This document shows, in pieces, positions 7,543 to 34,808 of a stretch of 37,577 nt of DNA (the stretch's first letter is position 1; each line of letters starts with the position of its first letter). Origin of the DNA: Patescibacteria group bacterium (GTDB lineage Bacteria > Patescibacteriota > Minisyncoccia > 2-02-FULL-40-12 > IGHO2-01-FULL-4-A); NCBI GenBank assembly GCA_038064915.1, contig JBBTSB010000012.1, forward strand, positions 1 to 37,577, written 5' to 3'. The position numbers and the translations under genes were made by a program. Under the pieces are notes generated by a model that did not search any database, had not been told where the DNA came from, and was given only the letters and a program-made list of their open reading frames with translations.

Positions 7543-8452
7543 GTTGTTGAAAACTGATCATAAGGATAGCAACGAGTAGTAGTACGATACCGACACCGTT
7601 GCCCGCGGTGAGCTTTTGCGGTGCGCCATAGGGATTGAGAGCGGTGATGGCAATGAGAATACTCATGATGGGATACGTAAGCTCCGCGATTGTAGAAACT
7701 TTTGCTTCGGTGTGTTGAAGGCCTTTGTAGTAGATAAAGATCGACGCCGCACCGGTACTCAACGCAATAATCAGCAGACGGAGGATTTGAGGTCCCGTGA
7801 GGTCAAATGGCGAATACGATTGATGGTACAAAGCTAGAGAAAAAATAAGCGTGACAGGAACTGCGAGCGCATAGCGGATCACCGTCGCCTCTTTAAAGGA
7901 AAGCTGGTGGAGTGCTTTCTTGCTCAAAATTGTTCCCAAGCCCCACGCTACCGCTGCGCCTACAGCGAGTGCCACTACGGTCCAACGATCAGACCATATC
8001 AATGGAACTTTTTGTGCACCAAAGCTCACAAGGTAACTGCCGATCAAGGCAACCGGAACCCACACCAGATACCTCCACGTAAGTTTTTCTCGTAAAAATA
8101 CCGCCGCAAAAAAGATCACAAAAATCGGCTGGAGTTTCAACAATAAAACCGGCGTGGCAAAGTCATAGAGCGCAAAGCTCTTCGAAAGGGCCTGTGTGAA
8201 CAGGAATGTCCCGAGAGCACTGGATACTATAGTAAGAAGGAGTAAGACAAGCCACGTTTTGAGTGAAAGTGTTTTGTATTTTGCAAAATATTTAAAAAAC
8301 AGTGGCGATAGCAAAATAAATGCTAACAGGTGCTCATAAAACACCACGGCGCCGGCTGGCATGCTTTGAATAAGTGTCCCGCGCAGGAGTGCATCAAGTG
8401 CCCAAAGTGCGGCGGCAATCATAATCAAAAAGGGGCCTGCGTTTTTTCGCAT
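7502..8452 (-). CDS. EamA/DMT-family membrane transporter (about 10 TM helices)
   Basis: 316 aa, highly hydrophobic throughout, with duplicated 5-TM halves typical of the DMT superfamily. Confidence 0.65.
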   Translation of the reverse strand: MRKNAGPFLIMIAAALWALDALLRGTLIQSMPAGAVVFYEHLLAFILLSPLFFKYFAKYKTLSLKTWLVLLLLTIVSSALGTFLFTQALSKSFALYDFATPVLLLKLQPIFVIFFAAVFLREKLTWRYLVWVPVALIGSYLVSFGAQKVPLIWSDRWTVVALAVGAAVAWGLGTILSKKALHQLSFKEATVIRYALAVPVTLIFSLALYHQSYSPFDLTGPQILRLLIIALSTGAASIFIYYKGLQHTEAKVSTIAELTYPIMSILIAITALNPYGAPQKLTAGNGVGIVLLLVAILMISFQQHGSTTPQAVGTEH

Positions 8453-8469
8453 GCCCCTATGCTATCACC

Positions 8470-8694
8470 TTACATTGTCGTTGTCATCCCATCCTTGCCG
8501 CAATACTTGCAGTGTTTTGCGTGCGTGATCAGTTCATACACCGCTGACAGTCCCACGAGCACGTACACGATTCGGGAAAGCGAGTCACCCAAAATCTCTC
8601 CAATGCCCCAATCAAACAGACCAATCAAAAGCCAGTTAAGACCCCCAATGATAATGAGGATCCAAGTTACCATGTGCAATCCTTTGCCTTTCAT
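8470..8694 (-). CDS. DUF378-family small membrane protein
   Basis: 74 aa. GGLNWLLIG and VGLSAVYEL motifs are characteristic of DUF378. Confidence 0.6.
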   Translation of the reverse strand: MKGKGLHMVTWILIIIGGLNWLLIGLFDWGIGEILGDSLSRIVYVLVGLSAVYELITHAKHCKYCGKDGMTTTM

Positions 8695-8821
8695 ATTCCC
8701 ACCTCCGATCTATTATTTAAACTGAATGTCCACCTGTAGTATACGCTACCTGCAAAAAAAGATATAAACACGTGCACATTCGGCCTGTTGGCCTCAGTAC
8801 TTCCTCACTCACGTTCGGTCG

Positions 8822-8893
8822 CAGCGCCACGGAGAGTCGAACTCCGGTTCTATCGTTGAAAACGATATGTCCTAACCGCTAGACGATGGCGCC
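8822..8893 (-). tRNA. tRNA-Glu (anticodon TTC), 72 nt
   Basis: Reverse complement folds as acceptor GGCGCCA/TGGCGCT, D-arm GTC-TAGCGGTTAG-GAC, anticodon stem TATCG/CGATA with loop TTTTCAA, T-arm CGGAG-TTCGACT-CTCCG. Confidence 0.8.
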
Positions 8894-8933
8894 ATAACTG
8901 GAAAAACTATACACGAAATGCTAGCTTTATTCA

Positions 8934-9956
8934 ATGCTAATTTTAGGCATCGAAACTTCCTGTGACGACACTTCAGTTGCGGTATTACGAATCGAAAATG
9001 ACAAGCCGTCTGTTTTATCAAACATCGTCTCATCGCAAGTAAAACTTCACAATGAATTTGGCGGCGTGGTGCCGATTTTGGCCGCGCGAGAGCATGAGCG
9101 CAATCTGCCCGTCGTACTCGACGAGGCAATGAAGGTTGCAAGTTTAAAGTTTAAAGATATTGATTTAATAGCCGTAACATCAGGACCGGGTTTAATAATG
9201 TCTTTAGTGAAAGGCGTAAACTTTGCAAAAGATCTCGCCCAAAAAAATAACAAGCCTATTATCGGCGTCAATCACATGGCCGGCCACATTTACTCAAACT
9301 GGCTTTCACTACCCACTACACACTATCCATTGTTCCCCGCTCTCTGCCTCACGGTCTCTGGAGGTCACACAGAATTGGTTTTTATGAAAAATCATGGCGA
9401 ATATGAATTGATAGGAAAAACGCTCGATGATGCAGCAGGAGAAGCATTTGATAAAATTGCGCGATTGATCGGCCTCGAATACCCAGGTGGACCCGCCATC
9501 GCCAGAACGGCGATGGAATTTTCAATTTCCAATTCTCAATTTTCAATAAAACTTCCAAGGCCAATGATGTATTCAAAAGATCTCAATTTCTCGTTTTCAG
9601 GATTGAAGACTTCTGTGTTGTACTTGGTAAGAGATCTCACGGTACCGCTCGATTCAGCACGATCAGAGATCGCTCATGAGGCACAAGAAGCTATTGTCGA
9701 TGTACTAATGCACAAAACCAAGAAAGCAATCGAGATGCATCAGCCAAAATCAGTTTTGCTCGCTGGCGGAGTTTCAGCAAACAAATTGCTACGAGAAAAA
9801 ATACAAACCTTGCATGAAAATGTTTTTATTCCTCCCATGGAATACACTACGGATAACGCTGCGATGATCGCGATGGCAGGGTACTATGAGTTTAAACGTT
9901 TAAAGTTTAAGAGTTTAAAATTGCTAGAGGCTGACGCAAACTGGGAAATCGTTTAG
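8934..9956 (+). CDS. tsaD: tRNA N6-adenosine threonylcarbamoyltransferase (Kae1/TsaD family)
   Basis: MLILGIETSCDDTSVAV..., the HMAGH metal-binding motif, GGVSAN. Full-length at 340 aa. Confidence 0.9.
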   Translation: MLILGIETSCDDTSVAVLRIENDKPSVLSNIVSSQVKLHNEFGGVVPILAAREHERNLPVVLDEAMKVASLKFKDIDLIAVTSGPGLIMSLVKGVNFAKDLAQKNNKPIIGVNHMAGHIYSNWLSLPTTHYPLFPALCLTVSGGHTELVFMKNHGEYELIGKTLDDAAGEAFDKIARLIGLEYPGGPAIARTAMEFSISNSQFSIKLPRPMMYSKDLNFSFSGLKTSVLYLVRDLTVPLDSARSEIAHEAQEAIVDVLMHKTKKAIEMHQPKSVLLAGGVSANKLLREKIQTLHENVFIPPMEYTTDNAAMIAMAGYYEFKRLKFKSLKLLEADANWEIV

Positions 9957-15536: not shown

Positions 15537-15622
15537 TGGTGCTGGGGAGAGGAGTCGAACCTCCATGTCCTTACGGACGGTAGCTCCTAAAGCTACTGCG
15601 GCTGCCATTTCGCCACCCCAGC
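15537..15622 (-). tRNA. tRNA-Leu (anticodon TAG), 86 nt, long variable arm, CCA encoded
   Basis: Reverse complement: acceptor GCTGGGG/CCCCAGC, anticodon stem GTAGC/GCTAC with loop TTTAGGA (G37), variable arm with GTCC/GGAC stem, T-arm GGAGG-TTCGACT-CCTCT, ACCA 3' end. Confidence 0.8.
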
Positions 15623-15724: not shown

Positions 15725-17470
15725 ATGGGTACGTTCTTTGTCGTTCTTTGCTCTCTGGTTCTGATCGTGGTCTTCAAAAGCCGTCTTCACGTCCCAGAGA
15801 ACAAGGCTGCTCTCATCAGGTGGGAGACGCCACAAATCCCTTTCATTAGGGATATTCTTGGCAGGCTCGGCCTACCGATCAACCCGATTGGCGGCAACGA
15901 TATCGTCGCCCTCTCCGGTCAAACGGGAGGATGGAGTGCCATACATTGGGCATCCGGCGATTACTGGATCCCACTTGTAGGATTCCGATTCCTTGCCAAG
16001 GTTCGCACCTTTGATCCGATGGAAGTTAAGGAAAATCAAGTTGGCCTCATGACGGCCAAAGTTGGGAAAAACCGTCCGCAGGGACAGAATTACCCGACTC
16101 CATTGGACGATCTGGACTTCTCGAACGGCGAGGATTTCATCCGTCGTGATGGCCAGAGGGGTCTTCAACTACAAACTCTGGGTCCTGGCAAGCATTTCTG
16201 CAACCCTGAAATTTGGGAGTTCGAACCTGTCGACAGGGTGGATATCGAGCCAGCGATTTTCCCGGATGATCCGTACAATCGGGGTAAGCCGACAGACGAA
16301 GCTTGGCCGAGACTAGGCCTCGCTGATCTCAGAATCGGAAGAATCATCCCCGAAGACGAGCGAACAAAACGAACTCTCGCGGTAGTAGTGCCGGGCCATG
16401 AAAACTTCGCCAACTTGGTCGCCTTCATTCAAAACGGTGGCGAGCAAGGAACACAAATCGAAGTCCTTGAGCCAGGTAGCTCCAGGATCAATACCGGCTA
16501 CGTGGGCATTGAAATGATCTTCGCAACTCGGGTGCGTCCTGGGTGGACGATCGTGCTTATCTCCAGTCAAGGCGATGAGCCCGATGAAAACGATTTCATA
16601 CCCGTAGCGGAGTTGGGCGGACGTCGGCCGGTTCACGTCTTGAAAAAAGGCATCGTCGGGAAACGCGGTACCTTGGCTGACACCCTGGGTCCTCGGGATT
16701 GGTTCATAAATCCCCGTCGCTACAAGCGAATACTGGTGAACACCTCACCCCAGACTCTCGCTTGGGACAAGACACAATACGACGAAAAAGACAAACCTCT
16801 GCGCCAGTTTCCCCCACTGGACGTGGAGAGCAAGGAAGGTTTCAAGTTCAACGTCGTCGGTGCCCTGGTCTTTGAGGTTAAGGACCAAGATGCTCCGATG
16901 ATGACTCGCGCTGCGGGGGGGGAAATCGAGAAACTCGTCAAAGCGATCGGTCCTATGGTTGGACAGGTTGTCCATCGGATTTGCAGGCAACATCCGATGA
17001 TCGATTTTGTCCGAGATACCAAGAAAGGGCTGGCGGCTGAGTTGACCAAAGCTCTCAAGGCGGTTCTGTCCTTCTACTATATCACGGTTCATGGATTCGA
17101 AATCGTGGACCTGGACTACGAAAGCAGAGGAGACAAGAACTTGGCCGAGTTCCTGAAGCAGTTGGCCGAGCAAGAGATTGCCGCACAGCGAGAGCTTGCC
17201 AACAAAGCTGGGATTCCAGCCGAAGTAGCCCGGATCGAACTGGAAGAAAAGCGCGGGGAAGCCGATGCTCAGAAAGTTATAAAGGTCGGCAAAGCAGAAG
17301 CTGAAGCTAAGACTCTGGTCGGCAACGCAGAAGCCGAAATCATGGCAAAGAAGGGAGCCGCCGTAGTCGCACTACTCCCCTCTGCTGGCTTGAGTAAGGA
17401 TGTGGGCCAAATCATTGTCGCCGGTATCACGGCTCTATCCAGTGCGCTTCAAGACAGTAAGAAGACGTAG
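15725..17470 (+). CDS. Flotillin-like SPFH/band-7 family protein with C-terminal EA-repeat coiled coil
   Basis: 581 aa. N-terminal TM helix. C-terminal AQRELANKAGIPAEVARIELEEKRGEADAQKVIKVGKAEAEAKTLVGNAEAEIMAKKG is typical of the flotillin (YqiK-like) EA-repeat tail. Strong SD (AGGAGG) 8 nt upstream. GC content is clearly higher than in surrounding genes. Confidence 0.5.
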   Translation: MGTFFVVLCSLVLIVVFKSRLHVPENKAALIRWETPQIPFIRDILGRLGLPINPIGGNDIVALSGQTGGWSAIHWASGDYWIPLVGFRFLAKVRTFDPMEVKENQVGLMTAKVGKNRPQGQNYPTPLDDLDFSNGEDFIRRDGQRGLQLQTLGPGKHFCNPEIWEFEPVDRVDIEPAIFPDDPYNRGKPTDEAWPRLGLADLRIGRIIPEDERTKRTLAVVVPGHENFANLVAFIQNGGEQGTQIEVLEPGSSRINTGYVGIEMIFATRVRPGWTIVLISSQGDEPDENDFIPVAELGGRRPVHVLKKGIVGKRGTLADTLGPRDWFINPRRYKRILVNTSPQTLAWDKTQYDEKDKPLRQFPPLDVESKEGFKFNVVGALVFEVKDQDAPMMTRAAGGEIEKLVKAIGPMVGQVVHRICRQHPMIDFVRDTKKGLAAELTKALKAVLSFYYITVHGFEIVDLDYESRGDKNLAEFLKQLAEQEIAAQRELANKAGIPAEVARIELEEKRGEADAQKVIKVGKAEAEAKTLVGNAEAEIMAKKGAAVVALLPSAGLSKDVGQIIVAGITALSSALQDSKKT

Positions 17471-17566
17471 TACACGGCGCGTAGTTGCGCCACGGGCATG
17501 GGATGAGCCGGAAACTCGGCTTGTTCCATGCCTGTTTTCATATTGAAATCCATATATAAAGAGAAA

Positions 17567-17598
17567 CGCGCGCGATCCGGTGTTACGGAGCGCGCGCG
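17567..17598. terminator. GC-rich 13-bp hairpin between convergent genes (likely bidirectional terminator)
   Basis: CGCGCGCGATCCG-gtgttacg-CGGAGCGCGCGCG, between the flotillin-like gene (+) and the proline-rich protein gene (-). A second hairpin, GGCGC-GTAGTT-GCGCC, lies at 17476..17491. Confidence 0.45.
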
Positions 17599-17626
17599 GT
17601 GAACGTTGTAGAGGCGTTCATGGATG

Positions 17627-18103
17627 TTACCTTCCCATGACGCGCTTGTTGGTGCGGCGAAGCTCATCGTTCGTCCGCTGGGTCTGAACATGGACGAGAA
17701 TGGGTTCCGCTGGAGGCGGGGCTGTCGGCCGCTCGTAGAACGCGGCCGGAATGTCGTCGGGTCCCGCATCACTCGCGCCTTCTCCAGATCCAGACGAGGG
17801 AAAGAACTTATTGATCCCCCACGTGATCAGGAGTGCGATGAGAGCGAGAGCTGCGAGCGCAACGGCCCAAGTCGGAAATCGTCTCGGCGCGGGACCAGGT
17901 GCAGGTGGTGGAGCAGGCGCAGCGACCGGGGGTACCGGAGGTGCGCCAGGCGGAGGAGGCGGAGCTACAGGCGGCACTGCGGGTGGAGCCGCGGGAGCGC
18001 CAGGAGGAATCGGTGCGATGACTGGAGCAGGCGGAGTACTGGAAAGGAAGGTGCGCGTGAAAAAGCTTTTCACGCTGGCCCACCTTGCCGCGAACCAGGC
18101 CAT
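17627..18103 (-). CDS. Proline/alanine-rich single-pass membrane protein
   Basis: Internal Met start (MAWFAARW...) whose ATG abuts the stop of the upstream gene. A PPAPVIAPIPPGAPAAPP... tract, then the TM helix WAVALAALALIALLITWGI. The opposite strand in this GC-rich stretch gives Arg-rich and Gly-rich ORFs, judged spurious. Confidence 0.4.
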   Translation of the reverse strand: MAWFAARWASVKSFFTRTFLSSTPPAPVIAPIPPGAPAAPPAVPPVAPPPPPGAPPVPPVAAPAPPPAPGPAPRRFPTWAVALAALALIALLITWGINKFFPSSGSGEGASDAGPDDIPAAFYERPTAPPPAEPILVHVQTQRTNDELRRTNKRVMGR

Positions 18104-18846
18104 CACTTCGTTTCCTCGATGGCCGGCTTTTCGATGAAGAACTCGAGAGCCGGTACCTCGATACCACCCTCCTTCAGACGATGCATGGCGACGGTATCGC
18201 CGCCAGTGACGTCTGGATAGACCCACGACATCTTGATCGCGGGTTTCTGGTCCGTCACTTCCTTGACGAGAGCGCGCGCGCCGAGCTGAACGCTCGAGCG
18301 ACTCGCAACTCCGGAAGCGTCGAAGGTCTCGGTTGCGCCCGGTGCGATGAACCAGCGAGTCTGCTGGTCCTCCGCCAGGACTTCAGCCGGGTACTTCTCC
18401 GACTTGTTGGTGAATGAGAAGTACGTCCTGCTGATCGACTCAGCCGGAGCCGACTTCCCACCCAGGGCCGATTTCGTCGGCGGGGCGTCGGAGTCTTCGA
18501 CGGTCGCGTCGTTGACGTCCTCGTAGCCGGCTTCGGATTCGCCGGAATCGTTGCCACTGTCGGCATCGCGGAGGGCGTCGTGACCCATTTGACCTGCCTT
18601 ATGAGCCGCCACGAGCTTGCTACGGCGATACTTCAGGTAGAGCCGGTGTTCGCGAAGATCCGCGTCGCGGTCGATGCCGCGCTTGTAGAGCTCCCCGACA
18701 TCGCGATCGTCGCCGGCATACCCGCCGGAATAGAAACTCTTCCTTTCCTGACATTGCGTGTAGCGCACGTAGGCGTCGGCGATGGAACCGCCGAACGCCT
18801 GCGTCGCCGACGCGAGCAGGGTAACGAGGATGGTTACCAGCCTCAT
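18103..18846 (-). CDS. Secreted protein of unknown function (signal peptide)
   Basis: N-terminal MRLVTILVTLLASATQAFG is a signal peptide. A strong SD (AGGAGG) sits 8 nt upstream of the ATG. GC-rich. Confidence 0.6.
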   Translation of the reverse strand: MRLVTILVTLLASATQAFGGSIADAYVRYTQCQERKSFYSGGYAGDDRDVGELYKRGIDRDADLREHRLYLKYRRSKLVAAHKAGQMGHDALRDADSGNDSGESEAGYEDVNDATVEDSDAPPTKSALGGKSAPAESISRTYFSFTNKSEKYPAEVLAEDQQTRWFIAPGATETFDASGVASRSSVQLGARALVKEVTDQKPAIKMSWVYPDVTGGDTVAMHRLKEGGIEVPALEFFIEKPAIEETK

Positions 18847-18951
18847 TTCAGACCTCCTGGCGGATTATCCGCCTTTTGAAAACTAAAAACCCAGCAACCA
18901 AACCATTTTGATTGCCGGGTTTATTATACACCTTTATGAAATTTTTGTCAA

Positions 18952-19356
18952 TCAGTAATTGAAGAGGAAGCTCTCTACGAGACCTACAACCGTTTTCACA
19001 ATTATGAATGCACCTACAATAATCAGAAGTCCAATAAGACCATTCCATAGGTGTGTACGTGCTTTTCCTGCCTTTTCTGAGTCACCACCAGCAAAAAGAT
19101 ACTGGAAACCAGCAATTACAATATATAGAACTGCAATTGCAATGCCGATGAAGATCAACCACGTTACTACGCTTTCAACAACGTTAATCAAATCTTCTTT
19201 AGTTAAAGCTCCACCTTCAATTGGTCCTACGCCATTTGTATTGGGCGCCGCAAAAGCAGTGAGAGGTGAAAATAATATCAAGGCAACTAGTACGGCGGGA
19301 CTCCATTTCTTTGCAACCGCTAAAAATTTCGACATTGAGATATGAAGGTGTCGCAT
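18952..19356 (-). CDS. Small secreted membrane protein with VirB2/TrbC-pilin-like topology (paralog 1 of 3)
   Basis: Signal peptide (...PLTAFAAP) followed by two hydrophobic helices separated by the motif GFQYLFAGGDSEKAGKAR. The true start may be the internal Met at 19335. Confidence 0.55.
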   Translation of the reverse strand: MRHLHISMSKFLAVAKKWSPAVLVALILFSPLTAFAAPNTNGVGPIEGGALTKEDLINVVESVVTWLIFIGIAIAVLYIVIAGFQYLFAGGDSEKAGKARTHLWNGLIGLLIIVGAFIIVKTVVGLVESFLFNY

Positions 19357-19413
19357 GCACCTGTTTAATACTGCTTATATGCTACCACACAAACGCAAAT
19401 CATTTATCCACAC

Positions 19414-19770
19414 TCACTTCGTCACTCCTAATATATCTTTTATCAAACTCACCAGACCCTCCGCCAGAAGCACGACGACAATGCCGATGAGGGCGTACAT
19501 AACGGTTTTTCTTCCTTTCGTCACCTGTTCGGGATTTCCGCCGGCCGTCATGATTTGAAAGCCACCGATGACTACCATGAGCGGGGCAAGCGCATAGAGT
19601 ACCAAGTCTTTGATAAAGGAAATCACCTTACCCACGAGCACGGTAAAGTCGTCACTCGAGAGCGGATTGCATAGATCTTTATTAGGATCGCACGCCGCAA
19701 ACGCAGCAACTGGAAGAAGTGCGTAGTGAATAGTGAACAGTGCAAAAAGAATTATTAAGATATATTTCAT
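19414..19770 (-). CDS. Small secreted membrane protein with VirB2/TrbC-pilin-like topology (paralog 2 of 3)
   Basis: Signal peptide (LLPVAAFAA), then LYALAPLMVVIGGFQIMTAGGNPEQVTKGRKTVMYALIGIVVVLLAEGL. Same two-helix pattern with the GG-x-Q...AGG-x-PE...KGRK motif as its neighbours. Confidence 0.55.
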   Translation of the reverse strand: MKYILIILFALFTIHYALLPVAAFAACDPNKDLCNPLSSDDFTVLVGKVISFIKDLVLYALAPLMVVIGGFQIMTAGGNPEQVTKGRKTVMYALIGIVVVLLAEGLVSLIKDILGVTK

Positions 19771-19774
19771 AGTT

Positions 19775-20632
19775 CTATTTTACCACAACATCCCAGTGTT
19801 CGTTGCCCGTCCCTGGGCTTTCGAGCATATAGACATTGCCGTATTGATCCTGCCACCGCTGATAGTGTTCCGTGGGGCTTGGAGAAATCTTGGTAAATGT
19901 GGAATTCGTGGTGATGTACTGTGTCAGCGTATTGGGACTGCCATCGGGGTTCTTGGATTGAAGATCTATTTTGTACCCATTGGCATGCGTGTAGAGGTTT
20001 GAAGAGCTGTCGTCATGACCCACCGCGGAGCTGGTCGCATCCGTGACTATTACTTTGCAGTCGGGGAAGGCGGCCGTGCATTCTTTTTGCAGGGCGATAG
20101 TCGCATCAACGGTCTTGGTGTTTACCTGATTCAGTTCAGCGCCAGGTTTCACCTGCACTGCGCCGTTTTCGAGGCGCTGTTGAGCATCTTTCTCGCTCAT
20201 TCTCCCTCCGGTGGGGATGTTTGCCTGAAGAGGCTTTGCGGGACCGCAATCAAGTTTGAACCAACTCTTGGCGGTGTCGTTTTCGCCGGCGATTACTTTT
20301 ATGACGGTGTTTGCTACCAGCCATGACGTATAAATAATCACCACACCCGTGACGGTCATGGTAAGCATCTTTCGGCCTTGGCTGATGAGCTCTGGGTTGA
20401 GTCCCCCAAGCACGATCATGAGTCCCGCGGTGATGGCAAAAAGGATCGCGAGAATGGGAACGAGCGGATTGACGATAAAGTCGATGACGCGCTTGATCTG
20501 TTTCAGGATGTCACAAGTAGTACAAGCTTGCGTGGTAGAAGTGCCGCACACTACCAGTGGATCGACCGCCTGCGCAGAACTCAAAGGAACGAGAAAAAAA
20601 GTAGCAATGACAATGATTACAAAGTATTTCAT
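19775..20632 (-). CDS. Pilin-like N-terminal module (paralog 3 of 3) fused to a C-terminal extracellular domain of about 170 aa
   Basis: Signal peptide MKYFVIIVIATFFLVPLSSAQA. ...ITAGLMIVLGGLNPELISQGRKMLTMTVTGVVIIY aligns to paralogs 1 and 2. The C-terminal domain has H-x2-G-x3-D (THANGYKIDL) and a C-terminal EHW. Confidence 0.55.
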   Translation of the reverse strand: MKYFVIIVIATFFLVPLSSAQAVDPLVVCGTSTTQACTTCDILKQIKRVIDFIVNPLVPILAILFAITAGLMIVLGGLNPELISQGRKMLTMTVTGVVIIYTSWLVANTVIKVIAGENDTAKSWFKLDCGPAKPLQANIPTGGRMSEKDAQQRLENGAVQVKPGAELNQVNTKTVDATIALQKECTAAFPDCKVIVTDATSSAVGHDDSSSNLYTHANGYKIDLQSKNPDGSPNTLTQYITTNSTFTKISPSPTEHYQRWQDQYGNVYMLESPGTGNEHWDVVVK

Positions 20633-21942
20633 TGACGGTTCATGATCACATTCACCTGCGATTCCGCTTCGCGCAAGGCATCGGGTACGGAAAACCGGTT
20701 GAAGTTTACATTATCGATCATTTTGGCAAAAATCGTCTCGATCGCTATGTTATCTACTTGGTACCACGAACGCGCCGACAAGCTCTGCACCGCAAAAACG
20801 CCCAGTTCGGGAGTCGTGCGCTGGGTTTCGATAAGATCACGCCTGGCTGAAGGCCGATCAGAAACTTCCAGGTAAGTCTTGGTCGCGTCACCCGTGGCCA
20901 AGTATACCAAAAACTTCCACGCCTCTTCCGGTGCGGCGGATTGTTTGGACACGGTGGGCGCCCAGTAGTTTGCAAAATTCACCGTCACGGTTGCTTTTTC
21001 CGGCTGAGGCATGGGAGCAATGGTAAAGTTCAGCCGCGGGGATTTTGCGCGGATGGTTTTCAGATGGTGAGAATAGTTGAACATCATCGCGGCGTTGCCA
21101 TCGGTAAACGCATCGATAGAATACTTTTGAAAATCGTTCCACGTATAGCGATCGGGCTTCGCCTGGTTTGCAAAGTCCGTATAGAATTGCAGGGCGAGTT
21201 CGCCGACGTTAATACCTTCGACGGACTGGGAAAACAGCGCCGAGGTATTGCCGGCATTGGTCATGCGGGTACCGCTTTGGAGCATCAAGAGCATGAGTAG
21301 GTCCGTGGAGCGGTTGATGTTGTGCGAGGTCCCCAAGGAAGCGGCGGATGTAGTGATGTTGCCGCGGTCGTCACGCTTGGTGAGCAGACCCACATCGCGA
21401 ACAAACTCTTCCCAAGTTTTCGGGGGTGAGGAAATGCCCTTCGAATTCAATGTCTCTTTGTTATAATACAGCCCGAGCGTATCCACGTAGAGAGGTAACG
21501 CATAGATCGTTCCGTCCGGAGCAGTCAGATCTGCTTTCACAACATCGACAAATGTTTCCTGAAAATCTTTGAAGGTATAGATCGGAGTTTTGCCCGTCTG
21601 CGACAGGGGAATGATTTTGTCCTGATGCTTGGGAAGCCAAGTGTTGTGCATCAGCCATATGTCCGGTCCCGTTCCCGCGGCAAACGCGCTGATCAGGCTT
21701 TTTTCGTAGTCCTCAAACGAAAACTCGCGGTACACAATACGGACATTGGAATGCTCCTGCGTGTAGGTATCGATGGCATCTTGATAGAAGGAGCGGTCGT
21801 CAAACGTCCCCCAAAACTGGAGCGTCGCCTCAGCAGGCGGCTGACCTTTTTTGGAAAGGAGCAAATAGAGCAGTCCCGCCATAATGATGATAAACGCGAT
21901 ACCGATGAGTATGAGGATGATTTTCTTTTTGTCGAAGATCAT
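20629..21942 (-). CDS. Membrane-anchored extracellular solute-binding protein (ABC-type SBP family 1-like); no cognate transporter nearby
   Basis: 437 aa. N-terminal TM helix, then the MalE-like SBP fold signature (LQFWGTFDD..., GTGPDIW, YALPLYVDTLGLYYNK). Overlaps the downstream pilin-like gene by 4 nt. No permease or ATPase genes are in the window. Confidence 0.6.
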   Translation of the reverse strand: MIFDKKKIILILIGIAFIIIMAGLLYLLLSKKGQPPAEATLQFWGTFDDRSFYQDAIDTYTQEHSNVRIVYREFSFEDYEKSLISAFAAGTGPDIWLMHNTWLPKHQDKIIPLSQTGKTPIYTFKDFQETFVDVVKADLTAPDGTIYALPLYVDTLGLYYNKETLNSKGISSPPKTWEEFVRDVGLLTKRDDRGNITTSAASLGTSHNINRSTDLLMLLMLQSGTRMTNAGNTSALFSQSVEGINVGELALQFYTDFANQAKPDRYTWNDFQKYSIDAFTDGNAAMMFNYSHHLKTIRAKSPRLNFTIAPMPQPEKATVTVNFANYWAPTVSKQSAAPEEAWKFLVYLATGDATKTYLEVSDRPSARRDLIETQRTTPELGVFAVQSLSARSWYQVDNIAIETIFAKMIDNVNFNRFSVPDALREAESQVNVIMNRQ

Positions 21943-22478
21943 GGTTTTTTCATTAGTAAACCGTAGTGAAATCCTCCGGCTGGGAAGGTCTCAACAAAAG
22001 CGAGTCCGACTCTTTCCATCAATGCGCGAAGCTCTTCCGCTCCTATGCGCATAGCGGTTGGCGGTCCGGCGGGGTTTTCGTTTTTATTCCATTCCACGGA
22101 CGAAATTTTGCCACCGGACTTGACTATGCGCGACGCCTCTTCCAGCACTTCTTTTTTCTTGCTCGTTTGCCACAAAATATTGGCCAAAAAAACGACATCC
22201 TGTGAATTGTCACCCAACGTAGAGCTTCCGAGAACCTCGAGGTTTGCCCGTACACTGGTGACATTTTTGAGATCAAGTCGTTTTGCTTTGGCGGAAACCG
22301 ATTCCAGCGCGCTGGGGAGTACGTCGAGTGCCGTCACCCTGCCGGTTTCCCCTACCAGATTTGCTATCATGATCGCGATTTCCCCGGATCCGGAACCAAA
22401 ATCGGCAACCTGCATTCCTTCCTGAATGCCGATGCGTGTCATGAGTTCTTGGGGATTCACAAAACCCTCGTCCGTCAT
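21939..22478 (-). CDS. Class I SAM-dependent methyltransferase
   Basis: VADFGSGSGEIAIMIA (motif I, GxGxG) and a downstream acidic residue (ALDV). Overlaps the SBP start by 4 nt. Confidence 0.7.
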   Translation of the reverse strand: MTDEGFVNPQELMTRIGIQEGMQVADFGSGSGEIAIMIANLVGETGRVTALDVLPSALESVSAKAKRLDLKNVTSVRANLEVLGSSTLGDNSQDVVFLANILWQTSKKKEVLEEASRIVKSGGKISSVEWNKNENPAGPPTAMRIGAEELRALMERVGLAFVETFPAGGFHYGLLMKKP

Positions 22479-22499
22479 GCTCCTGATTATACCACGTTG

Positions 22500-23348
22500 C
22501 TATTTTTTGAGTAAATCTAAAACTTCCTGACTCGGCTTCCAGCCGATATTTTTCCAAGATTCTACAAACGATTGAACGTGCGCCAGCCCGTAGATGGATT
22601 TTTTAAAAGATGTACGGTAGGTAAGCTGTTGATGCATTTCGGGTGAATTCAAGATGTCCCCAAGGGAAACACCAGCTCTCTCCCAGGCATGAACAAGTTC
22701 AGAAAATTGCCGAGGATTATCTTGCCAAAGAAAAAGTTTTCTGAATATCTTTTCCCGGATTTCTTCTCGAGTTTCTGGCCTATCGAGATGCGGTTTCATT
22801 TCGATACCCACATCCCGCCATGCCTGTAGATAATCCAAAATTCTTTTTGGCTCATCACCGTAAATACTTATATTAAAAAGAAACCGATTATACAGATATC
22901 GCTGTATGTCCGGAGTGGCAAGCTCCATTTGCAGTTCCTCAGAAGATAGAGAAGTGGAGTCGCAGTACTTTTTAAATGCCCGAGGATCATAAAGGTTAAC
23001 TTCCTTTACATGTAGCTTTTTCTTTTCTTGGGCAGGTCGAGGCGTGGGTGGCGCATAAATATTTCCAAGATCAAAGTTAAAGTTTCCAAACCCAAAAAAG
23101 TCTGGTTTTCTGACACTATCATATGCTTTGCGCTTTGTCGGATCGGACAAAACCTCATACGCCATTGCAAGATCTTTAAACGTCTCCTCGGCTGCGACGT
23201 TGCCGGGGTTTACGTCAGGATGGTGCTGTCGCGCTAGGTTGCGGTACGCTCGTTTGATAGTTTCAGCATCGGCATTCCGAGGAACACCTAGAATTTCGTA
23301 GGGGTCTTTCTTTTTCTCGGGGGTTGATGCAAATCTTCGTTCACTCAT
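22500..23348 (-). CDS. J-domain (DnaJ-like) protein with non-canonical C-terminal region
   Basis: DPYEILGV...[14 protein letters not shown] is a J-domain with the HPD tripeptide. No Gly/Phe-rich region or Zn finger follows. Confidence 0.7.
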
Positions 23349-23442
23349 GGTTTTTTCTTTATATCACCACTACCGCCCGGTGTTGTCCCAAAACGGTTAC
23401 TATCTCCTCCCAACCTCCCCTTACCGCAAAGGGGAGGAGCCA

Positions 23443-23688
23443 TCAGTAAATAAGCTTTGGGGGATGAAGTTCTTTCCCAAAAACTTTTGCAGCTTTCTGA
23501 AGAAGTTTTATACTTGGCAAGGCTTGCCCTTTCTCTATGCGAACAATATATTCTCGTTGTACACCGAGTCGATGAGCAAGTTCATTTTGAGCCATCTTCC
23601 GTTTAGCACGCGTTATTCTAACCATGTGACCGACATACAAAGCAAGGTTATTATCTTTGTAGAATTTTCTTTCCTTAGTAAGAGACAT
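23443..23688 (-). CDS. XRE-family helix-turn-helix transcriptional regulator
   Basis: 81 aa. MVRITRAKRKMAQNELAHRLGVQREYIVRIEKGQALPSIKLL is a classic Cro/C1-type HTH. Confidence 0.7.
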   Translation of the reverse strand: MSLTKERKFYKDNNLALYVGHMVRITRAKRKMAQNELAHRLGVQREYIVRIEKGQALPSIKLLQKAAKVFGKELHPPKLIY

Positions 23689-27132: not shown

Positions 27133-27753
27133 TTAGATCAGTTCCGCAATCACCACAAGACGCTGTTTGGTAGAAAAAAGTGGAGCGCAGGTGATGAGAG
27201 TAATGGTTGCTTTGTCGGTGGAATTCAGTACAGAAAAATCAGTCGGTTCGATGATTTTGATTTCGGTTGTTCGATACGTATACGTTGTCCCTTTCCAAGA
27301 CACCTTAATCTCATCTCCGGCACGAATTTTGTCCAAAGCGTAAAATGTATTGGAAACGGGAGGAAGGTAGCGGAAGCGGTGACCAAAAATCACCGTGTTG
27401 CTTGCGTATTCCGGCGTCGATGTTCCCGGAAATATCCAGCCGCCTTTGACGAGCACGTCGGCATCATCACTTTCAAAAATCGGCATGCTGATATCCAATT
27501 TGGAAATGAAAAGACGATTTTTTATATTCGGTCGGTTGGGGTCGAACGAAGGAGCTGGCGTCGGAGATGAAGAAAAAGAGGAACTTGCCATAGGTACGTC
27601 AACAACTCGTTCCTGGGCAACCGCATCGAGGTAATCCAAATCCCCGCTCAAGCCGAATGGCAAAAACGGAAACGACAAACCGCCCACACCCACGAGGAGA
27701 AAGATCACCCCGAGGATAATGAGCGGCTTGTTGAATGTTCGCTTGTTAGGCAA
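27133..27753 (-). CDS. Sortase family transpeptidase
   Basis: N-terminal TM anchor, catalytic His (VIFGHR), active-site TLITC motif (TLxTC) and a downstream Arg. Overlaps the upstream LPXTG-protein gene by 8 nt. Confidence 0.8.
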
Positions 27754-29155
27754 GGGTTGTAAGGAATCGGCGAGGCAAAGCTTGGGCTCCGACGAGTATC
27801 AAGAAGATACCTGTCAGCGCAAATGCAATAAAGAGAGAAGCAAGCATGCGATCGCTGAAGCCAAATCCTGTCGTAGGAAGCACATCGCTTGCACCGGCTA
27901 CCTGTCCGCCACTGGTTGTACCACCGGTAGTTCCACCGGTTGTAGCACCAGCAACTTCACCACCGGTTGTTCCACCCGTGGATCCGCCACCTGAAGTGCC
28001 ACCACCAGTGGATCCACCACCAGAACTTGTGGCATTGTCGTTGTAGGTAAGCGTGCAGGTCTTGGAGTCACCATTGGCGAGAGTTACATTACCAATAGTA
28101 TCGCAGTCTCCCGTGATACCTTCAAAGGTATAGTCTGAGCTCCCTACAACCGTCAACAGGATGGTCGATATTCCACCCGTGCCGGTGTTACTAAAGCGCG
28201 AATCGCCATCAACATCATAGGTTGCTGGGGTAACTGTGTACTGAATACCGGAGTTCAAGCCGCCTGCTGGAGTACCGCTGACAAGCGTGCCATTGGTCAT
28301 TTCAATCGTGTGAATAAAATCCTGTGATGTGGCAGTTCCGCCGTTGTCATTGATGACAATCGTTTTGACGATCAGAGTTGCTGACTGCGGAGGGGTGACA
28401 CCGCCTCCACCACCGCCGCCGCCCCCTCCACCACCACCAGTTCCTGGATCAGGAGTGGGTGTTGGAGTTGGAGTAGGTGTAGGTTCCACGCTCGGTGTAG
28501 GAGTTGGGGTCGGGGTTGGTTCAGGAGTTGGGGTCGGAGTTGGGCAGTTTGGATTATTGCCTGGATTGTCACAACTTGGATCAGAGGTTGGCGTAGGAGT
28601 CGGAGTTATCTCGGGCGTTGGTGTCGGGGTTGGAGTAATCTCTGGAGTCGGTGTGGGAGTAGGAGTTATTTCGGGGGTAGGAGTCGGGGTTGGAGTAGGA
28701 GTGGGGGTTGGCGCTTCAGTAGGTGTTGGTGTTGGGGTCGCGGTTACACCGGCAACACGAAAATTATCAGATTTCCCATCGACTTCTGATTTATACTCTC
28801 CTCCATCACCATCTTGAATTGTATATGCTGCAAAACAAAACTTTCCTTGAGCATCGGTTGTTATAGTTCCAGAAGCTACCACGGTGCTTGGGTCTGTAGA
28901 ACCAGGTTGTCCAGTTACCGTCCAGGTTAAAGTGACATCCTGATCAAACCCCGTACCAATAATATACATAACATCACCGACCTCATAGAGGTTTTTGTTT
29001 ACCGGATTTCCACAATCTCCCGTAGTAGTTTTAATATTTCCACCTGCTGCTTGCACACTTCCAAGCGGACCAATGACAGGCATTAAAACCATCGTGCTAA
29101 CAAATACGACCAGGAATACTGAGCTTGCGACTGCTAATAGTTTACTTTTATTCAT
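27746..29155 (-). CDS. LPXTG-anchored surface protein with PT-repeat linker and poly-Gly tract
   Basis: Signal peptide, an ([10 protein letters not shown])n repeat, a G13 run, then a C-terminal LPTTG motif followed by a hydrophobic helix and an RR tail: a canonical cell-wall sorting signal. Confidence 0.8.
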
Positions 29156-29227
29156 AGTATATTAAATAAACGTAATTACTACGTTTTTGTGACGTAATGT
29201 TAACTTGATAGGAATATACCACATCCT

Positions 29228-30142
29228 TCATGATAATGCAAGCCCTAGGCCTATATACCTATTAATCGCCAGCACTGTCAGTACGACGAGGATCAATAGC
29301 ATCGGCGCAATCGCCAGGCGTGGATTAGGAAGTTCAAAACGGATAATGATCGTGAGGACGAAGGCCAAAAGAACAATTCCTCCTATAATAAGCAAAATAT
29401 TGTTAGTTGTCTTGCGAGGTTCGATGACTACCGTGGTGAGAATACTAGAAGGTTGGACCTTGTTTGGTTGTGCAAGTGCAGGAATTGCTGTTGGTGAACG
29501 TTTTGCCATCGGTGATGGTGATGGAAAAGTTGTCGCTGCCGCTTCGACACGTTGAGGTGAGACCACGATGCGGGATGAGCTCCGAGGCTTTCCAAAATAC
29601 TGCACTACAAAAATAGCTTCGTTCCCCTGGTACATTCCCTTTGCGGTCGCAATACCGATCTCCGTATAGCCTCCGTTCATGATGTTGGCGCGATGCGAAG
29701 GTGAGTTCATCCATGCGGTATGCACATCGCTTGAGTCAATAAAATTCACGGCAAGATTCTCCCCTGCTGCCGTGTATCCGTACCCAGCCTTCTGCAGCCA
29801 GTACCACGGCGTGACTCCCTCGGGGCTTGTGTGCGCAAAGTATCCCTTACTTGCCATGTCTTGTGCCTTGAGCGTGGCCGCCTGCTCTAATATGGAGTTG
29901 GTAACGAGTATTGGAAGATTTTCGTTCGTACGAGATGCATTGGCCGACTGTACCAGTACATTGGGAAGGATCAATGAAAAAAGTCCTTGACCCGGTTTGA
30001 TCACGAACGTCGAAACCAAAAATGTTCCTTCAACCGTGATGGCAACCGCCAACAAAAAAACAATCGCCTCCGTGCGAAGCATATGCGGATGGTGATCGTT
30101 CCCTTCGTGGGGGATGAAGTGGTCTTTGAGCCAAGAAAGCAT
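29228..30142 (-). CDS. CAP/SCP (PR-1-like) domain membrane protein
   Basis: GYFAHTSPEG...GENLA...WMNSPSHRANIMN...YTEIG is the CAP-domain signature. N-terminal TM helix and C-terminal hydrophobic helices. Confidence 0.65.
   Translation of the reverse strand: MLSWLKDHFIPHEGNDHHPHMLRTEAIVFLLAVAITVEGTFLVSTFVIKPGQGLFSLILPNVLVQSANASRTNENLPILVTNSILEQAATLKAQDMASKGYFAHTSPEGVTPWYWLQKAGYGYTAAGENLAVNFIDSSDVHTAWMNSPSHRANIMNGGYTEIGIATAKGMYQGNEAIFVVQYFGKPRSSSRIVVSPQRVEAAATTFPSPSPMAKRSPTAIPALAQPNKVQPSSILTTVVIEPRKTTNNILLIIGGIVLLAFVLTIIIRFELPNPRLAIAPMLLILVVLTVLAINRYIGLGLALS
30071..30133. repeat. Direct repeat copy 1 (5' end of the CAP gene, about 63 bp)
   Basis: gtgcgaagcatat|gcggatggtgatcgttcccttcgtgggggatgaagtggtctttgagccaa recurs at 30965..31083, with one mismatch and a 56-bp insertion. 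Confidence 0.85.
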
Positions 30143-34124: not shown

Positions 34125-34808
34125 ATGGCTCGCTTCAAGGACAGAGAAAAGGCCGTACAACTTCGAATGCAAGGCAAAACGTATTCCGAAATACGACCCA
34201 TTCTCGATGTAAGTAAAAGTACGCTCTCGAATTGGCTTACAAATATTCGTGTTTCAAAAACACAACTCCAAGATATCGAGAAAAGTGCAAAATTGAAGCG
34301 AAGTGAAAACTATTTCCGAACTATTCGAGAACGAAAAGCACGTCTTGAGAAAGAATACTTCGAAGCAGAGAAAAGTACTTTAGGAAAAATTACCAAAAGA
34401 GACCTATTTATAGCTGGCCTATTTCTTTATCTCGGGGAAGGTACAAAAAGTACGGCATCGAAAATTTGTATTTCCAATAGTGACCCTGCAGTTATTGCTT
34501 TCGCGTCATTTTGGCTCAAGAAAATTTTAGGCGTAGAGAAAAAGAAAATGAGAGTCGCAATTCATCTTTATAGCAACATGGAAATTGAGAGGGAAAAATT
34601 GTTTTGGAGTAAGGTAACAGATTTGCCGATTGCACAATTTCATACACCCTACATAAAGAGGTCTAGAGCGAACAGGATCACCCACATCTCCCATGGTCAT
34701 GGAACTTGTAATATTATCTATGGAAATGTACACTTAAAACAGCGAATTATGGCAGGAATAAAGGTTATATTAGGAGATGGACTTGACGGGCGCGTAGCTC
34801 AATGGTAG
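34125..34808 (+). CDS. HTH-domain protein with one LAGLIDADG-like motif (possible degenerate homing endonuclease); its 3' end runs 21 nt into tRNA-Ile
   Basis: N-terminal resolvase/sigma-70 region-4-like HTH (GKTYSEIRPILDVSKSTLSNWL). FIAGLFLYLGEGTKS resembles the first LAGLIDADG motif of the ORF at 36778. No clear second motif. Confidence 0.4.
   Translation: MARFKDREKAVQLRMQGKTYSEIRPILDVSKSTLSNWLTNIRVSKTQLQDIEKSAKLKRSENYFRTIRERKARLEKEYFEAEKSTLGKITKRDLFIAGLFLYLGEGTKSTASKICISNSDPAVIAFASFWLKKILGVEKKKMRVAIHLYSNMEIEREKLFWSKVTDLPIAQFHTPYIKRSRANRITHISHGHGTCNIIYGNVHLKQRIMAGIKVILGDGLDGRVAQW

Follow-up and report, generated by a model that had tools for sequence, protein, structure and literature searches.

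Gene content and organization of the locus

The window, i.e., the whole stretch of 37,577 nucleotides that was analysed, comes from an ultrasmall groundwater bacterium of the Paceibacteria, a Patescibacterium related to Yanofskybacteria. According to the ORF listing, its minus strand holds five tightly packed co-directional genes that form an operon and encode, in this order, a methyltransferase (MTase), a solute-binding protein (SBP), and the pilin-like proteins pilin3, pilin2, and pilin1. Both the MTase/SBP and the SBP/pilin3 junctions are ATGA overlaps, and the remaining genes are separated by 4 nt (pilin3–pilin2) and 57 nt (pilin2–pilin1). Just 5′ of the MTase start, a promoter-like site (22486..22515, minus strand; TTTACT-18-TATAAT with TG) with 10/12 matches in a consensus scan is, by consensus match only, the candidate promoter of the operon. 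At the opposite end, the sequence reads as a putative operon end (18887..18951, minus strand) with a 16-bp hairpin and a T-run (18922-18887). This hairpin region overlaps a perfect TTGACA-17-TATAAT site (18951-18923, minus strand), which the consensus scan points to as the putative promoter of the next gene.

The neighbours of the block are housekeeping and envelope genes (gyrA, VanW, PrsW, and HSP20), and its setting is a housekeeping chromosomal one, not a mobile element. In all six relatives checked (6/6), the last pilin gene is directly followed by tRNA-Leu(tag). This ancestral downstream neighbour (15537..15622, minus strand; ARAGORN and Rfam) is split from the array by a 3.3-kb insertion in the window, which carries lineage-specific insertions on both flanks and keeps the core MTase–SBP–pilin unit intact.

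The pilin-like proteins and their positional orthogroups

As shown by alignment and profile searches, the three small proteins are homologous two-helix modules of the VirB2/TrbC type (PF18895/PF04956), an assignment already made in the first-pass annotation together with their paralogy. The Pfam model T4SS_pilin (PF18895; cut-off of 26.6 bits) scores 34.0 bits for pilin1, 44.4 for pilin2 (1.7e-11), and 22.3 for pilin3, while TrbC (PF04956; cut-off of 27.9 bits) scores 30.3, 21.6, and 17.7, respectively. Pilin1 is therefore above the cut-off for both models, pilin3 is below it for both, and two of the three proteins exceed at least one threshold. An NCBIfam match of pilin1, to the Mbov_0395 pilin-like conjugal transfer protein (2.1e-07), lies under its cut-off. 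Identity between the paralogues is low (23–35%), although their relationship goes far beyond chance in BLASTP for pilin1 and pilin2 (1e-12) and for pilin2 and pilin3 (6e-11). The direct BLASTP comparison of pilin1 and pilin3 is not significant, and the two are linked through pilin2 and Pfam. A Kyte-Doolittle scan and the alignment corroborate the predicted topology for each protein, consisting of a hydrophobic N-terminal signal followed by two hydrophobic helices with a short polar/basic turn between them. This conserved turn aligns as AGFQYLFAGGDSEKAGKAR, GGFQIMTAGGNPEQVTKGRK, and AGLMIVLGGLNPELISQGRK in the three pilins, and the putative signal-peptide cleavage sites read from the sequence are AFA/AP, AFA/AC, and AQA/VD. 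Six-frame translation of the window yields exactly three such modules.

The synteny sample comprises 80 loci from related species, all of one lineage and all with the SBP, where arrays of two to eight pilins are found. Their modules fall into four orthogroups (A–D) that follow the position in the array, with a fit of 73/74 for position 1, 62/84 for position 2, and 41/52 for position 3, the fourth orthogroup being terminal. Type A (position 1) is present in 73 loci, type B (position 2; median of 250 aa) in 69, and type D (median of 124 aa) in 55, the latter being the only commonly duplicated orthogroup. Bulky domains occur on either end of the module in type-A and type-B proteins. The window holds types A, B, and D, and lacks C. 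Pilin3 (19775..20632, minus strand; 285 aa) is its type-A protein, with a signal peptide, a CxxCD motif, the VirB2-like two-helix module (approximately residues 1–118), a linker, and a C-terminal LAS-like domain. Pilin2 (19414..19770, minus strand; 118 aa) is a short form of type B without the N-terminal ectodomain found in most orthologues, and pilin1 (18952..19356, minus strand; 134 aa) is the short, terminal type-D protein and the candidate major subunit. The fixed positions and distinct architectures of the four orthogroups indicate that the paralogues are old and specialised, and that the arrays consist of position-specific proteins rather than interchangeable copies.

The C-terminal extension of pilin3

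The first-pass annotation was right about the presence of an extracellular C-terminal extension of about 170 residues in this protein, but missed its resemblance to LAS-fold peptidases. The domain (residues 141–285; 19778..20212, minus strand) was modelled with a pLDDT of 92 in a Hedgehog/DD-peptidase (LAS) fold, and its best structural matches are metallopeptidases of this fold. H216, D223, and H279 are candidate zinc ligands, and H206 and D281 are conserved too. The H216-x6-D223 motif and H279, which lies in an H-W-D motif, are invariant or nearly so in 48–53 family members, and all of these residues are present in the window protein. Neither the domain nor 48 members of its family match Pfam at E ≤ 1, including the M15 families (VanY and Peptidase_M15_2/3/4), and the domain has no sequence match in the PDB. 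On the basis of the model, the extension is predicted to be a cell-wall-peptidase-like domain, a putative peptidoglycan peptidase outside any Pfam family.

Its relatives form a separate, uncurated LAS-like family of 54 cluster representatives, whose members co-occur with PG_binding_1, GH25, and SLT domains. In relatives of the window, the type-A slot is occupied by proteins of up to 1202 aa with SLT or other hydrolase-like domains. Pfam detects SLT in 26 of the 51 long type-A pilins, VanY in one, and PF18895 in 42. No description of such a pilin–hydrolase fusion was found in the literature searched.

The solute-binding protein and the methyltransferase

The first gene of the operon (21939..22478, minus strand) encodes a cytoplasmic class I SAM-dependent methyltransferase of 179 aa. 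It matches the Pfam families Methyltransf_31 (8e-18) and Ubie_methyltran (1.4e-15), all its NCBIfam matches are far under cut-off, and no hydrophobic span appears in a Kyte-Doolittle scan. The second gene (20629..21942, minus strand) encodes a membrane-anchored, MalE-like SBP of the CUT1 carbohydrate type (437 aa), which matches SBP_bac_8 (2.7e-29; 103 bits) and SBP_bac_1 (5e-26; 93 bits) and has its only hydrophobic span, a single N-terminal transmembrane segment, at residues 1–33. Its nearest relatives in the PDB are sugar and oligosaccharide SBPs, and homologues with 46–69% identity are found in the genomes of 289 species. An alignment of 22 sequences contains 78 invariant columns, many of them aromatic, and the SBP evolves far more slowly than the pilins (median identity of 52% versus 32–38%).

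The apparent isolation of this SBP from any transporter holds for the window, where neither an ABC permease nor an ABC ATPase was matched when the 29 larger ORFs were compared with Pfam, a set that omits a few smaller ones near 35–37.4 kb. The annotated relatives L004–L007 have neither gene beside the SBP and no permease within 8 kb of it, and the gene order in the 80 loci leaves no space beside it for permease or ATPase genes. Its pairing with pilin-like subunits is upheld as a genomic association, since a pilin gene follows the SBP in 78/80 related loci and starts at most 300 nt away in 76. The MTase lies immediately 5′ of the SBP in 74/80 loci, and the MTase–SBP–pilin block is kept next to gyrA in 78/80 genomes. 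No description of an SBP–pilin partnership was found in the literature searched.

The proposed link with type IV secretion

No VirB4 was detected in the window by a local HMM search of its six-frame translation or by Pfam on the 29 larger ORFs, as the first-pass annotation had observed. VirD4 and relaxase are likewise absent from these 29 ORFs, so that no complete conjugative T4SS was found in the scanned parts of the window. The block does not lie within a canonical conjugative cluster, and VirB4, VirB6, and PrgI are absent from the window and from the surrounding 8 kb in 84 related loci. The picture differs in other lineages, where the pilin–hydrolase fusion lies 1–4 kb from PrgI/VirB4, near dnaA. 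Among 15 metagenomic pilin–LAS loci whose upstream sequence extends for 4 kb or more, seven hold a VirB4-like ATPase and five the SBP, and in the two loci examined PrgI and DnaA/DnaN lie nearby.

Tandem arrays of VirB2-like genes have been published for Patescibacteria (PMC12102498, PMC10633639), with 441 arrays of 2–11 genes in 383 assemblies (PMC12102498). The core of the locus is therefore of a known kind, and not the unrecognised system that it first seemed to be. VirB4 is scored as ‘Yes’ for six of the seven Yanofskybacteria assemblies that carry the block (Table S1 of PMC12102498). In Southlakia epibionticum, a pilin array belonging to a T4SS cluster is essential (PMC10633639), and T4SS pilins are highly expressed in Paceibacteria that parasitise methanogens. 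The patescibacterial T4SS has been called completely unknown in function, although it proved essential in the only species where this was examined (PMC11665869, PMC10633639). No demonstration of a pilus for any patescibacterial T4SS was found in the literature searched, where a review speaks only of the ‘potential to elaborate conjugative pili’.

Proposed function and alternative explanations

The locus is best explained, with a probability of roughly 0.6, as the pilin and wall-opening (VirB1-like) module of a patescibacterial T4SS, a module that lies apart from the VirB4/PrgI ATPase cluster and shares its transcript with the SBP. The VirB4-positive relatives and the proximity of the fusion to PrgI/VirB4 elsewhere make a displaced T4SS module more economical than the separate filament system that had been put forward. 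From these features we infer pilus assembly, peptidase activity, and the role of the SBP. The pilins would be exported by Sec, lose their signal peptides, and stay in the membrane as helical hairpins, where a VirB4/VirB6 machine encoded elsewhere would extract the short type-D subunit and build a pilus or conduit from it. Type A would act as a zinc peptidase outside the membrane, cutting peptidoglycan locally in a VirB1-like manner. It would attack the cell's own wall or possibly that of a bacterial host, although the latter is disfavoured, at least for the cultured relatives, as these parasitise archaea without peptidoglycan. Type B would usually display its N-terminal ectodomain, and the ligand of the co-translated SBP, bound at this same site, would be a carbohydrate or derive from the wall. 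The SBP would serve as a receptor or sensor, or pick up what is released and hand it to a transporter whose genes lie elsewhere.

The ordered, specialised subunits suggest a major subunit accompanied by minor ones. The large fused domains fit poorly with all subunits packing into a helical pilus. Pilins with such domains would be minor subunits at best, and could be mere membrane-anchored enzymes. The scores of pilin3 below the Pfam cut-offs are a further counter-point to the T4SS reading, as are the missing VirB4, VirB6, and PrgI around the block and the lack of a demonstrated pilus in the literature searched.

A possible, though less probable, explanation is that the pairing of the SBP with the pilins is incidental, even if the latter are T4SS parts. 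The SBP would serve as the binding component of a conventional sugar ABC importer with its permease elsewhere, the MTase would be a housekeeping enzyme, and co-transcription would reflect compaction and inherited order. The adjacency could indeed be partly inherited gene order, since the sample is confined to a single lineage, where the conservation of gyrA and of the VanW–HSP20–PrsW flanks comes close to that of the SBP–pilin junction. The SBP is also a typical CUT1 member with a slower evolutionary rate than the pilins, and pilin–LAS fusions without any SBP occur in other lineages. However, the SBP and pilin A are coupled by a 4-nt ATGA overlap in 22/78 relatives, as in the window, and their gap is of at most 32 nt in 59/78. 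Moreover, the junction outlives the disruption of its flanks, both by the two insertions in the window and in relatives without VanW, and is kept in the more distant metagenomic loci L099, L100, and L122, where no MTase was detected. The absence of a permease within 8 kb in every annotated relative also argues against an ordinary importer.

A T4SS-independent envelope module is rather unlikely. The hairpins would only anchor wall hydrolases, Ig/fn3 spacers, and adhesin-like ectodomains, forming together with the SBP a patch for wall remodelling or host contact with neither VirB4 nor a filament. The distance from VirB4 in the window and all 84 related loci, the housekeeping and envelope neighbours, the size of the domains fused to either end of type-A and type-B modules, and the lack of a pilus demonstrated so far in Patescibacteria all agree with it. 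Yet the fusion family lies directly beside PrgI–VirB4 in 7/15 informative metagenomic loci, the T4SS-cluster array of S. epibionticum is essential, and homology to TrbC/VirB2 is significant. Furthermore, type D (~124 aa) has no passenger to anchor and is nevertheless the most often duplicated.

More speculatively, and with little probability, the operon could encode a dedicated host-contact and uptake organelle of Paceibacteria, in which the pilin hydrolase opens an envelope and the SBP captures the glycan or muropeptide set free and passes it to, or gates, a VirB2-like conduit. An SBP would then serve a T4SS-type pilus in place of an ABC permease, and the way in which CPR bacteria draw nutrients from their hosts would become open to concrete study.

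Slightly less probable still is that the members of the array are copies of one pilin that vary antigenically and can replace one another, as has been proposed for the VirB2 paralogues of Bartonella and Anaplasma and raised as an option for Patescibacteria (PMC12102498). The low identity between paralogues and the faster divergence of pilins than of neighbouring genes are in line with this idea, whereas the four orthogroups with fixed positions and distinct architectures across 80 species, and the restriction of common duplication to the terminal type D, speak against it. Finally, holins, bacteriocin-immunity proteins, or other unrelated two-helix membrane proteins matching pilin models by composition are very improbable: the proteins are short and hydrophobic and one of the three falls under the Pfam cut-off, but no such family was matched in Pfam or NCBIfam, two independent pilin models exceed their cut-offs for pilin1, and VirB4/PrgI are neighbours in other lineages.

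Regarding the displaced T4SS module, several of its features appear to be new: the conservation of the block next to gyrA without VirB4 within 8 kb, the four position-specific pilin orthogroups, the peptidoglycan-hydrolase domain usually borne by the first pilin, and the pilin–hydrolase fusion beside PrgI–VirB4 near dnaA in other lineages. Most VirB2-carrying genomes have been considered to lack VirB1, a view that may be wrong for Paceibacteria, given the wall hydrolase fused to the first pilin paralogue. In addition, the strongly conserved sugar-type SBP (~290 species), translationally coupled to the pilins, becomes a candidate for sensing or capturing a ligand, and the uncurated LAS-like family, whose members are for the most part joined to T4SS pilin modules, could be added to domain databases.

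Comparison with known systems

The closest counterparts are the VirB2-like arrays of patescibacterial T4SSs, exemplified by SEML1_0006-0019 from Southlakia epibionticum ML1, the ‘Sec-secreted array’ from TM7x, and the 441 arrays of PMC12102498, which likewise line up PF18895/PF04956 proteins of divergent sequence in tandem, each having a signal peptide ahead of two helices. They share with the locus a monoderm CPR genome and a chromosomal location with no relaxase context. Unlike them, the locus lies outside the virB4 cluster, behind an MTase–SBP pair next to gyrA, and is built of position-specific orthogroups, with a wall-hydrolase-type domain joined to its first member. The array descriptions in the literature searched contain none of these traits.

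The VirB2/TrbC/TraA pilins (PF04956) of diderm bacteria resemble the locus in their signal peptide, helical hairpin, and short charged turn, and pilin1 exceeds the TrbC cut-off. However, the host is a monoderm, there is no VirB5 or VirB7/9/10 context, and no evidence of cyclisation or acetylation exists at the locus. Some members of its pilin family also hold large fused domains, which to our knowledge do not occur in classical pilins.

With respect to the extension of pilin3, VirB1, PrgK (pCF10), TraG (pIP501), and TcpG are also membrane-tethered wall hydrolases encoded with T4SS genes, and are thought to open the wall locally (PMC12102498). Half of the long type-A orthologues share the SLT domain with these T4SS hydrolases, although their tether is a VirB2-like module instead of a single transmembrane helix and the window domain is LAS-like rather than SLT or CHAP. 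Structurally, this domain is most similar to MepA, VanX, VanY, LdcB, the L-Ala-D-Glu peptidases of phage T5 and Ply500, and the Hedgehog N-domain, and within its own family the H-x6-D motif and the distal His, the candidate zinc ligands, are invariant. It differs from LAS peptidases in its distal motif (H-W-D and not H-x-H), and neither the Pfam M15 families nor the PDB hold a sequence that matches it, its metal binding and activity being predicted.

Lastly, two SBPs are associated with T4SSs: ChvE, a sugar-type SBP through which VirA senses sugars in Agrobacterium, and PrgZ, which captures pheromone for pCF10. Although no sensor kinase or Opp-type partner was identified at the locus and its SBP family differs from that of PrgZ, these proteins offer an analogy to the window SBP, with its presumed association with a T4SS and the lack of a cognate permease beside it, and ChvE is of the sugar type as well.

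Operon architecture and pilin identity

Five closely spaced genes appear in the ORF listing on the minus strand at 18.9–22.5 kb. They encode a class-I SAM methyltransferase (MTase, 179 aa, 21939–22478), a membrane-anchored solute-binding protein (SBP, 437 aa, 20629–21942), and the pilins pilin3 (285 aa, 19775–20632), pilin2 (118 aa, 19414–19770), and pilin1 (134 aa, 18952–19356). The MTase/SBP and SBP/pilin3 junctions are both ATGA overlaps, while gaps of 4 and 57 nt separate pilin3 from pilin2 and pilin2 from pilin1, respectively. A promoter-like site lies immediately 5' of the MTase gene, and a 16-bp hairpin with a T-run, found by consensus scan and sequence reading, follows pilin1, both as consensus matches only. 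Right after the pilin1 stop codon (18887–18951), a perfect sigma-70 consensus, TTGACA-17-TATAAT (likewise a consensus match only), overlaps the 5' arm of this terminator-like hairpin, and the AGGAGG ribosome-binding site of a 247-aa gene lies downstream of it; by its sequence, this stretch looks like a compact terminator/promoter junction.

The observation made in the first-pass annotation, of three paralogous pilin-like proteins behind an orphan SBP, is confirmed. BLASTP relates pilin1 to pilin2 (1e-12) and pilin2 to pilin3 (6e-11), and each protein starts with a hydrophobic signal, followed by two hydrophobic helices that flank the Gly-rich basic turn noted in the first-pass annotation. The Pfam family T4SS_pilin (PF18895) matches pilin1, pilin2, and pilin3 with 34.0, 44.4, and 22.3 bits, the last of these falling under the cut-off of 26.6 bits; TrbC/VirB2 (PF04956) is matched by all three, and pilin1 passes the cut-off in both families. 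The NCBI record for pilin3 is already annotated as 'pilin', and a word-indexed homologue search with the full-length protein returned only itself. The SBP shows Pfam matches to SBP_bac_8 and SBP_bac_1 and a single N-terminal hydrophobic span, its closest solved relatives being sugar or oligosaccharide SBPs. Neither an ABC permease or ATPase nor a VirB4 was found by Pfam among the 29 larger ORFs of the window (a set that omits a few smaller ORFs near 35–37.4 kb) and by a six-frame scan with a VirB4 HMM.

The reading preferred here, with a probability of roughly 60%, is that the operon supplies the pilin and wall-opening parts of a patescibacterial T4SS, lying outside the ATPase cluster and in one transcription unit with the SBP and the MTase. 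It draws on the observed homology, architecture, fold, and synteny, and on the VirB4 association of the pilin3-like fusion family. Under such a mechanism, the pilins would be exported by Sec and their hairpins would insert into the membrane, from which a VirB4/VirB6 machine encoded elsewhere would extract the terminal pilin type (type D) to build a pilus or conduit; the first pilin type (type A) would play a VirB1-like role, and the SBP may sense or capture a ligand. The MTase is without evident link to VirB2 biology.

Conserved genomic context

SBP homologues with 46–69% identity are encoded by 289 species-representative genomes, and 80 of their loci were fetched and scanned locally with HMMs. 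Of the 80 loci, 78 have a pilin gene behind the SBP; its distance is at most 300 nt in 76, and in 22 the two genes overlap by 4 nt. The MTase lies directly upstream of the SBP in 74/80, and gyrA is found upstream in 74/80 as well. Where downstream sequence reaches 4 kb or more (59 loci), the arrays comprise two to eight pilins. VanW-HSP20-PrsW come next, in opposite orientation. No VirB4-like ORF was detected by the HMM scan in the fetched SBP loci, and Pfam annotation of four relatives agrees with the MTase-SBP-pilin picture. The accounts of patescibacterial pilin arrays considered here mention neither an SBP nor gyrA in such a context, and the conserved MTase-SBP coupling beside gyrA appears to be undescribed in the searchable literature. 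The gyrA ORF reaches about 1150–1350 aa in roughly a dozen relatives (L014, L026, L030, L036, L043, L045, L047–L049, L061, L072, L082, and L086 among the fetched loci), compared to about 810 aa in the window and in most other relatives, which suggests intein insertions.

The adjacency of SBP and MTase to the pilins might simply reflect the inherited gene order of one lineage, a tentative explanation that would be compatible with the T4SS reading. Against it, the translational coupling between SBP and pilin persists, and the core unit is retained where the flanks have changed.

A hydrolase-like domain in the first pilin

Searches of Pfam and PDB sequences with the C-terminal domain of pilin3 (aa 141–285), alone or as a profile, gave chance-level matches only, and Gp34_2nd, dextransucrase, and L29 were dismissed as such. 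An exhaustive HMMER search with this domain yielded 54 cluster representatives. An N-terminal PF18895 module is present in 35 of the 53 scanned members, other partners being PG_binding_1 (3), GH25 (1), and SLT (1). Residues H216, G219, K221, and D223 (pilin3 numbering) are invariant; in the 48-sequence domain alignment H279 and D281 do not vary either, and in the full-length alignment they are conserved >90%; H206, W280, C192, and T197 are also conserved >90%. AlphaFold2 modelled the domain from the family alignment with a pLDDT of 91.8 (a poor single-sequence model of pilin3, with 55.6, was set aside), and the best Foldseek matches were Hedgehog N-terminal domains (probability 0.97, E about 0.03, TM about 0.5). 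In the model, the assignment to the LAS fold is fairly secure. The H-x6-D pattern and distal His presumably correspond to the LAS zinc site, and together with the fold model they point to a divergent, uncurated LAS-like peptidoglycan peptidase, whose activity is predicted. Both this domain family and pilin-hydrolase fusions appear to be undescribed in the searchable literature.

Pilin3 belongs to the type-A orthogroup (73 loci), which occupies position 1 (73/74 members) and holds an N-terminal module with a CxxCD motif and a variable C-terminal domain. Among 51 long type-A orthologues, Pfam identified SLT (26), He_PIG (12), fn3 (7), and VanY (1). Two further C-terminal domain types in relatives, 'M15a' and 'M15b', bear H...D...HxH-like motifs; these labels are motif-based only, since neither type has a Pfam match and hhalign links the first only weakly to the window's LAS domain (probability 41%, E 2.9e-4) and the second not at all. 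Relatives close by SBP identity (60–65%) bear differing domain types, and therefore the catalytic domain has been exchanged while its position stayed fixed. PMC12102498 describes VirB1 as missing from most VirB2-containing genomes; for the Paceibacteria, type-A hydrolase fusions are a candidate explanation.

A metagenome scan with the family motif Y[ST]HANGYK, taken from an 8-sequence alignment subset, recovered 61 loci. Fifteen pilin-LAS loci have 4 kb or more of sequence upstream; among them, a VirB4-like ATPase (Pfam P-loop_TraG, AAA_10, TraC_F_IV) lies 1–4.5 kb upstream in seven, the SBP is present in five, and three have neither. These counts, together with the VirB4 'Yes' entry for 6/7 Yanofskybacteria assemblies carrying the SBP block (PMC12102498, Table S1), indicate that members of the fusion family occur in either of two settings, the T4SS cluster or the SBP block. 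That the hairpins are mere anchors of surface enzymes, with no T4SS needed, is unlikely beside the VirB4-linked loci.

Pilin orthogroups and array order

Louvain clustering of 320 pilin modules from the SBP loci separated four orthogroups with fixed array positions, most of which were merged by single linkage. Besides type A, type B (69 loci, median 250 aa) occupies position 2 (62/84) and holds a C-terminal module behind a variable N-terminal ectodomain, pilin2 being a short form; type C (51 loci), with an 'ACWL...PLVC' motif, occupies position 3 (41/52) and is absent from the window; and type D (55 loci), of about 124 aa and often duplicated, is terminal and represented by pilin1. This ordered four-orthogroup architecture also appears to be undescribed in the searchable literature. 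Type-B pilins (e.g., 8447–9490 in locus L005) hold Cys-rich N-terminal ectodomains of 230–600 aa, for which no Pfam family was found beyond weak Ig-like matches, and in some arrays a non-pilin secreted or transmembrane protein sits between the pilins (220 aa at 8575–9237 in locus L004).

The pilins diverge faster than the neighbouring genes, with median identities to the window of 37.5% (A module), 33% (D), and 32% (B), against 72% for GyrA, 52% for the SBP, and 44% for the MTase. An array of antigenic-variation copies is nevertheless improbable: the pilins are old, specialised paralogues, which argues against simple antigenic variation. A holin or bacteriocin nature is very hard to sustain and was rejected, because no match to such families was found in Pfam or NCBIfam.

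Flanking segments

The source of the window is a Patescibacteria MAG from Hainich groundwater, and outside the operon the window is mostly housekeeping (gyrA, leuS, infC, tsaD, ftsH, rpsA-like, and tRNAs), together with sortase and CAP surface-protein genes. A mobile element was ruled out because of the flanking gyrA, leuS, tsaD, infC, ftsH, and tRNAs. The surface-protein cluster (27133–30142), kept upstream in the same contigs, encodes a sortase (206 aa), a 469-aa protein without Pfam family, and a CAP-domain protein (304 aa). At 34788–34860, a tRNA-Ile with anticodon TAT, an uncommon AUA-reading solution among bacteria, lies beside tRNA-Val(tac); its gene overlaps two ORFs from the mechanical listing.

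A 3.3-kb segment (15725–18846) separates the pilin operon from tRNA-Leu(tag). It has a G+C of 0.58 versus about 0.47 and encodes a 581-aa SPFH/Band_7 protein, overlapping ORFs rich in Pro/Ala/Gly/Arg (17.6–18.2 kb), and the 247-aa ORF, which has a signal-peptide-like N-terminus and no Pfam or NCBIfam family. Its genes have no homologues across 84 related loci, and tRNA-Leu(tag) directly follows the last pilin in all six relatives checked; the segment is probably a lineage-specific insertion. At 22500–23688, a DnaJ-domain protein (282 aa) and a small HTH_3 protein of 81 aa separate gyrA from the MTase, which directly follows gyrA in relatives; no homologue of the DnaJ protein was detected across the 84 related loci.

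Comparison with known patescibacterial T4SSs

Tandem pilin arrays have been described in these bacteria. A search of 3,035 Patescibacteria genomes with the PF18895 and PF04956 models (Quinonero-Coronel et al. 2025, PMC12102498) found VirB2-like proteins in 1,948 VirB4-positive assemblies and 441 arrays of 2–11 pilin genes each. In Southlakia epibionticum, Wang et al. 2023 (PMC10633639) found a pilin series within the T4SS cluster to be essential; T4SS pilins are among the top-expressed unknown genes of Paceibacteria parasitising methanogens (Kuroda et al. 2024), and a 2025 review regards patescibacterial T4SSs as the sole monoderm T4SSs with VirB2-like subunits. Because of these published arrays, essentiality, and expression data, tandem pilin arrays in CPR genomes count as an already known kind of feature. 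The earlier proposal of an uncharacterised surface filament, adhesion, or uptake module is partly supported: the pilin-type nature of the proteins stands, whereas the kind of system is already recognised.

Two of the seven VirB4-linked pilin-LAS loci, belonging to other, unassigned lineages of the metagenomes, carry the order PrgI – VirB4 – one gene – pilin-LAS (L094, 2802–6659, and L107, 2412–7396, in the metagenome set), where the intervening gene encodes a protein of about 230 aa and DnaA-DnaN follow 2–3 kb downstream of the fusion. This order is the origin-proximal T4SS arrangement described in PMC12102498.
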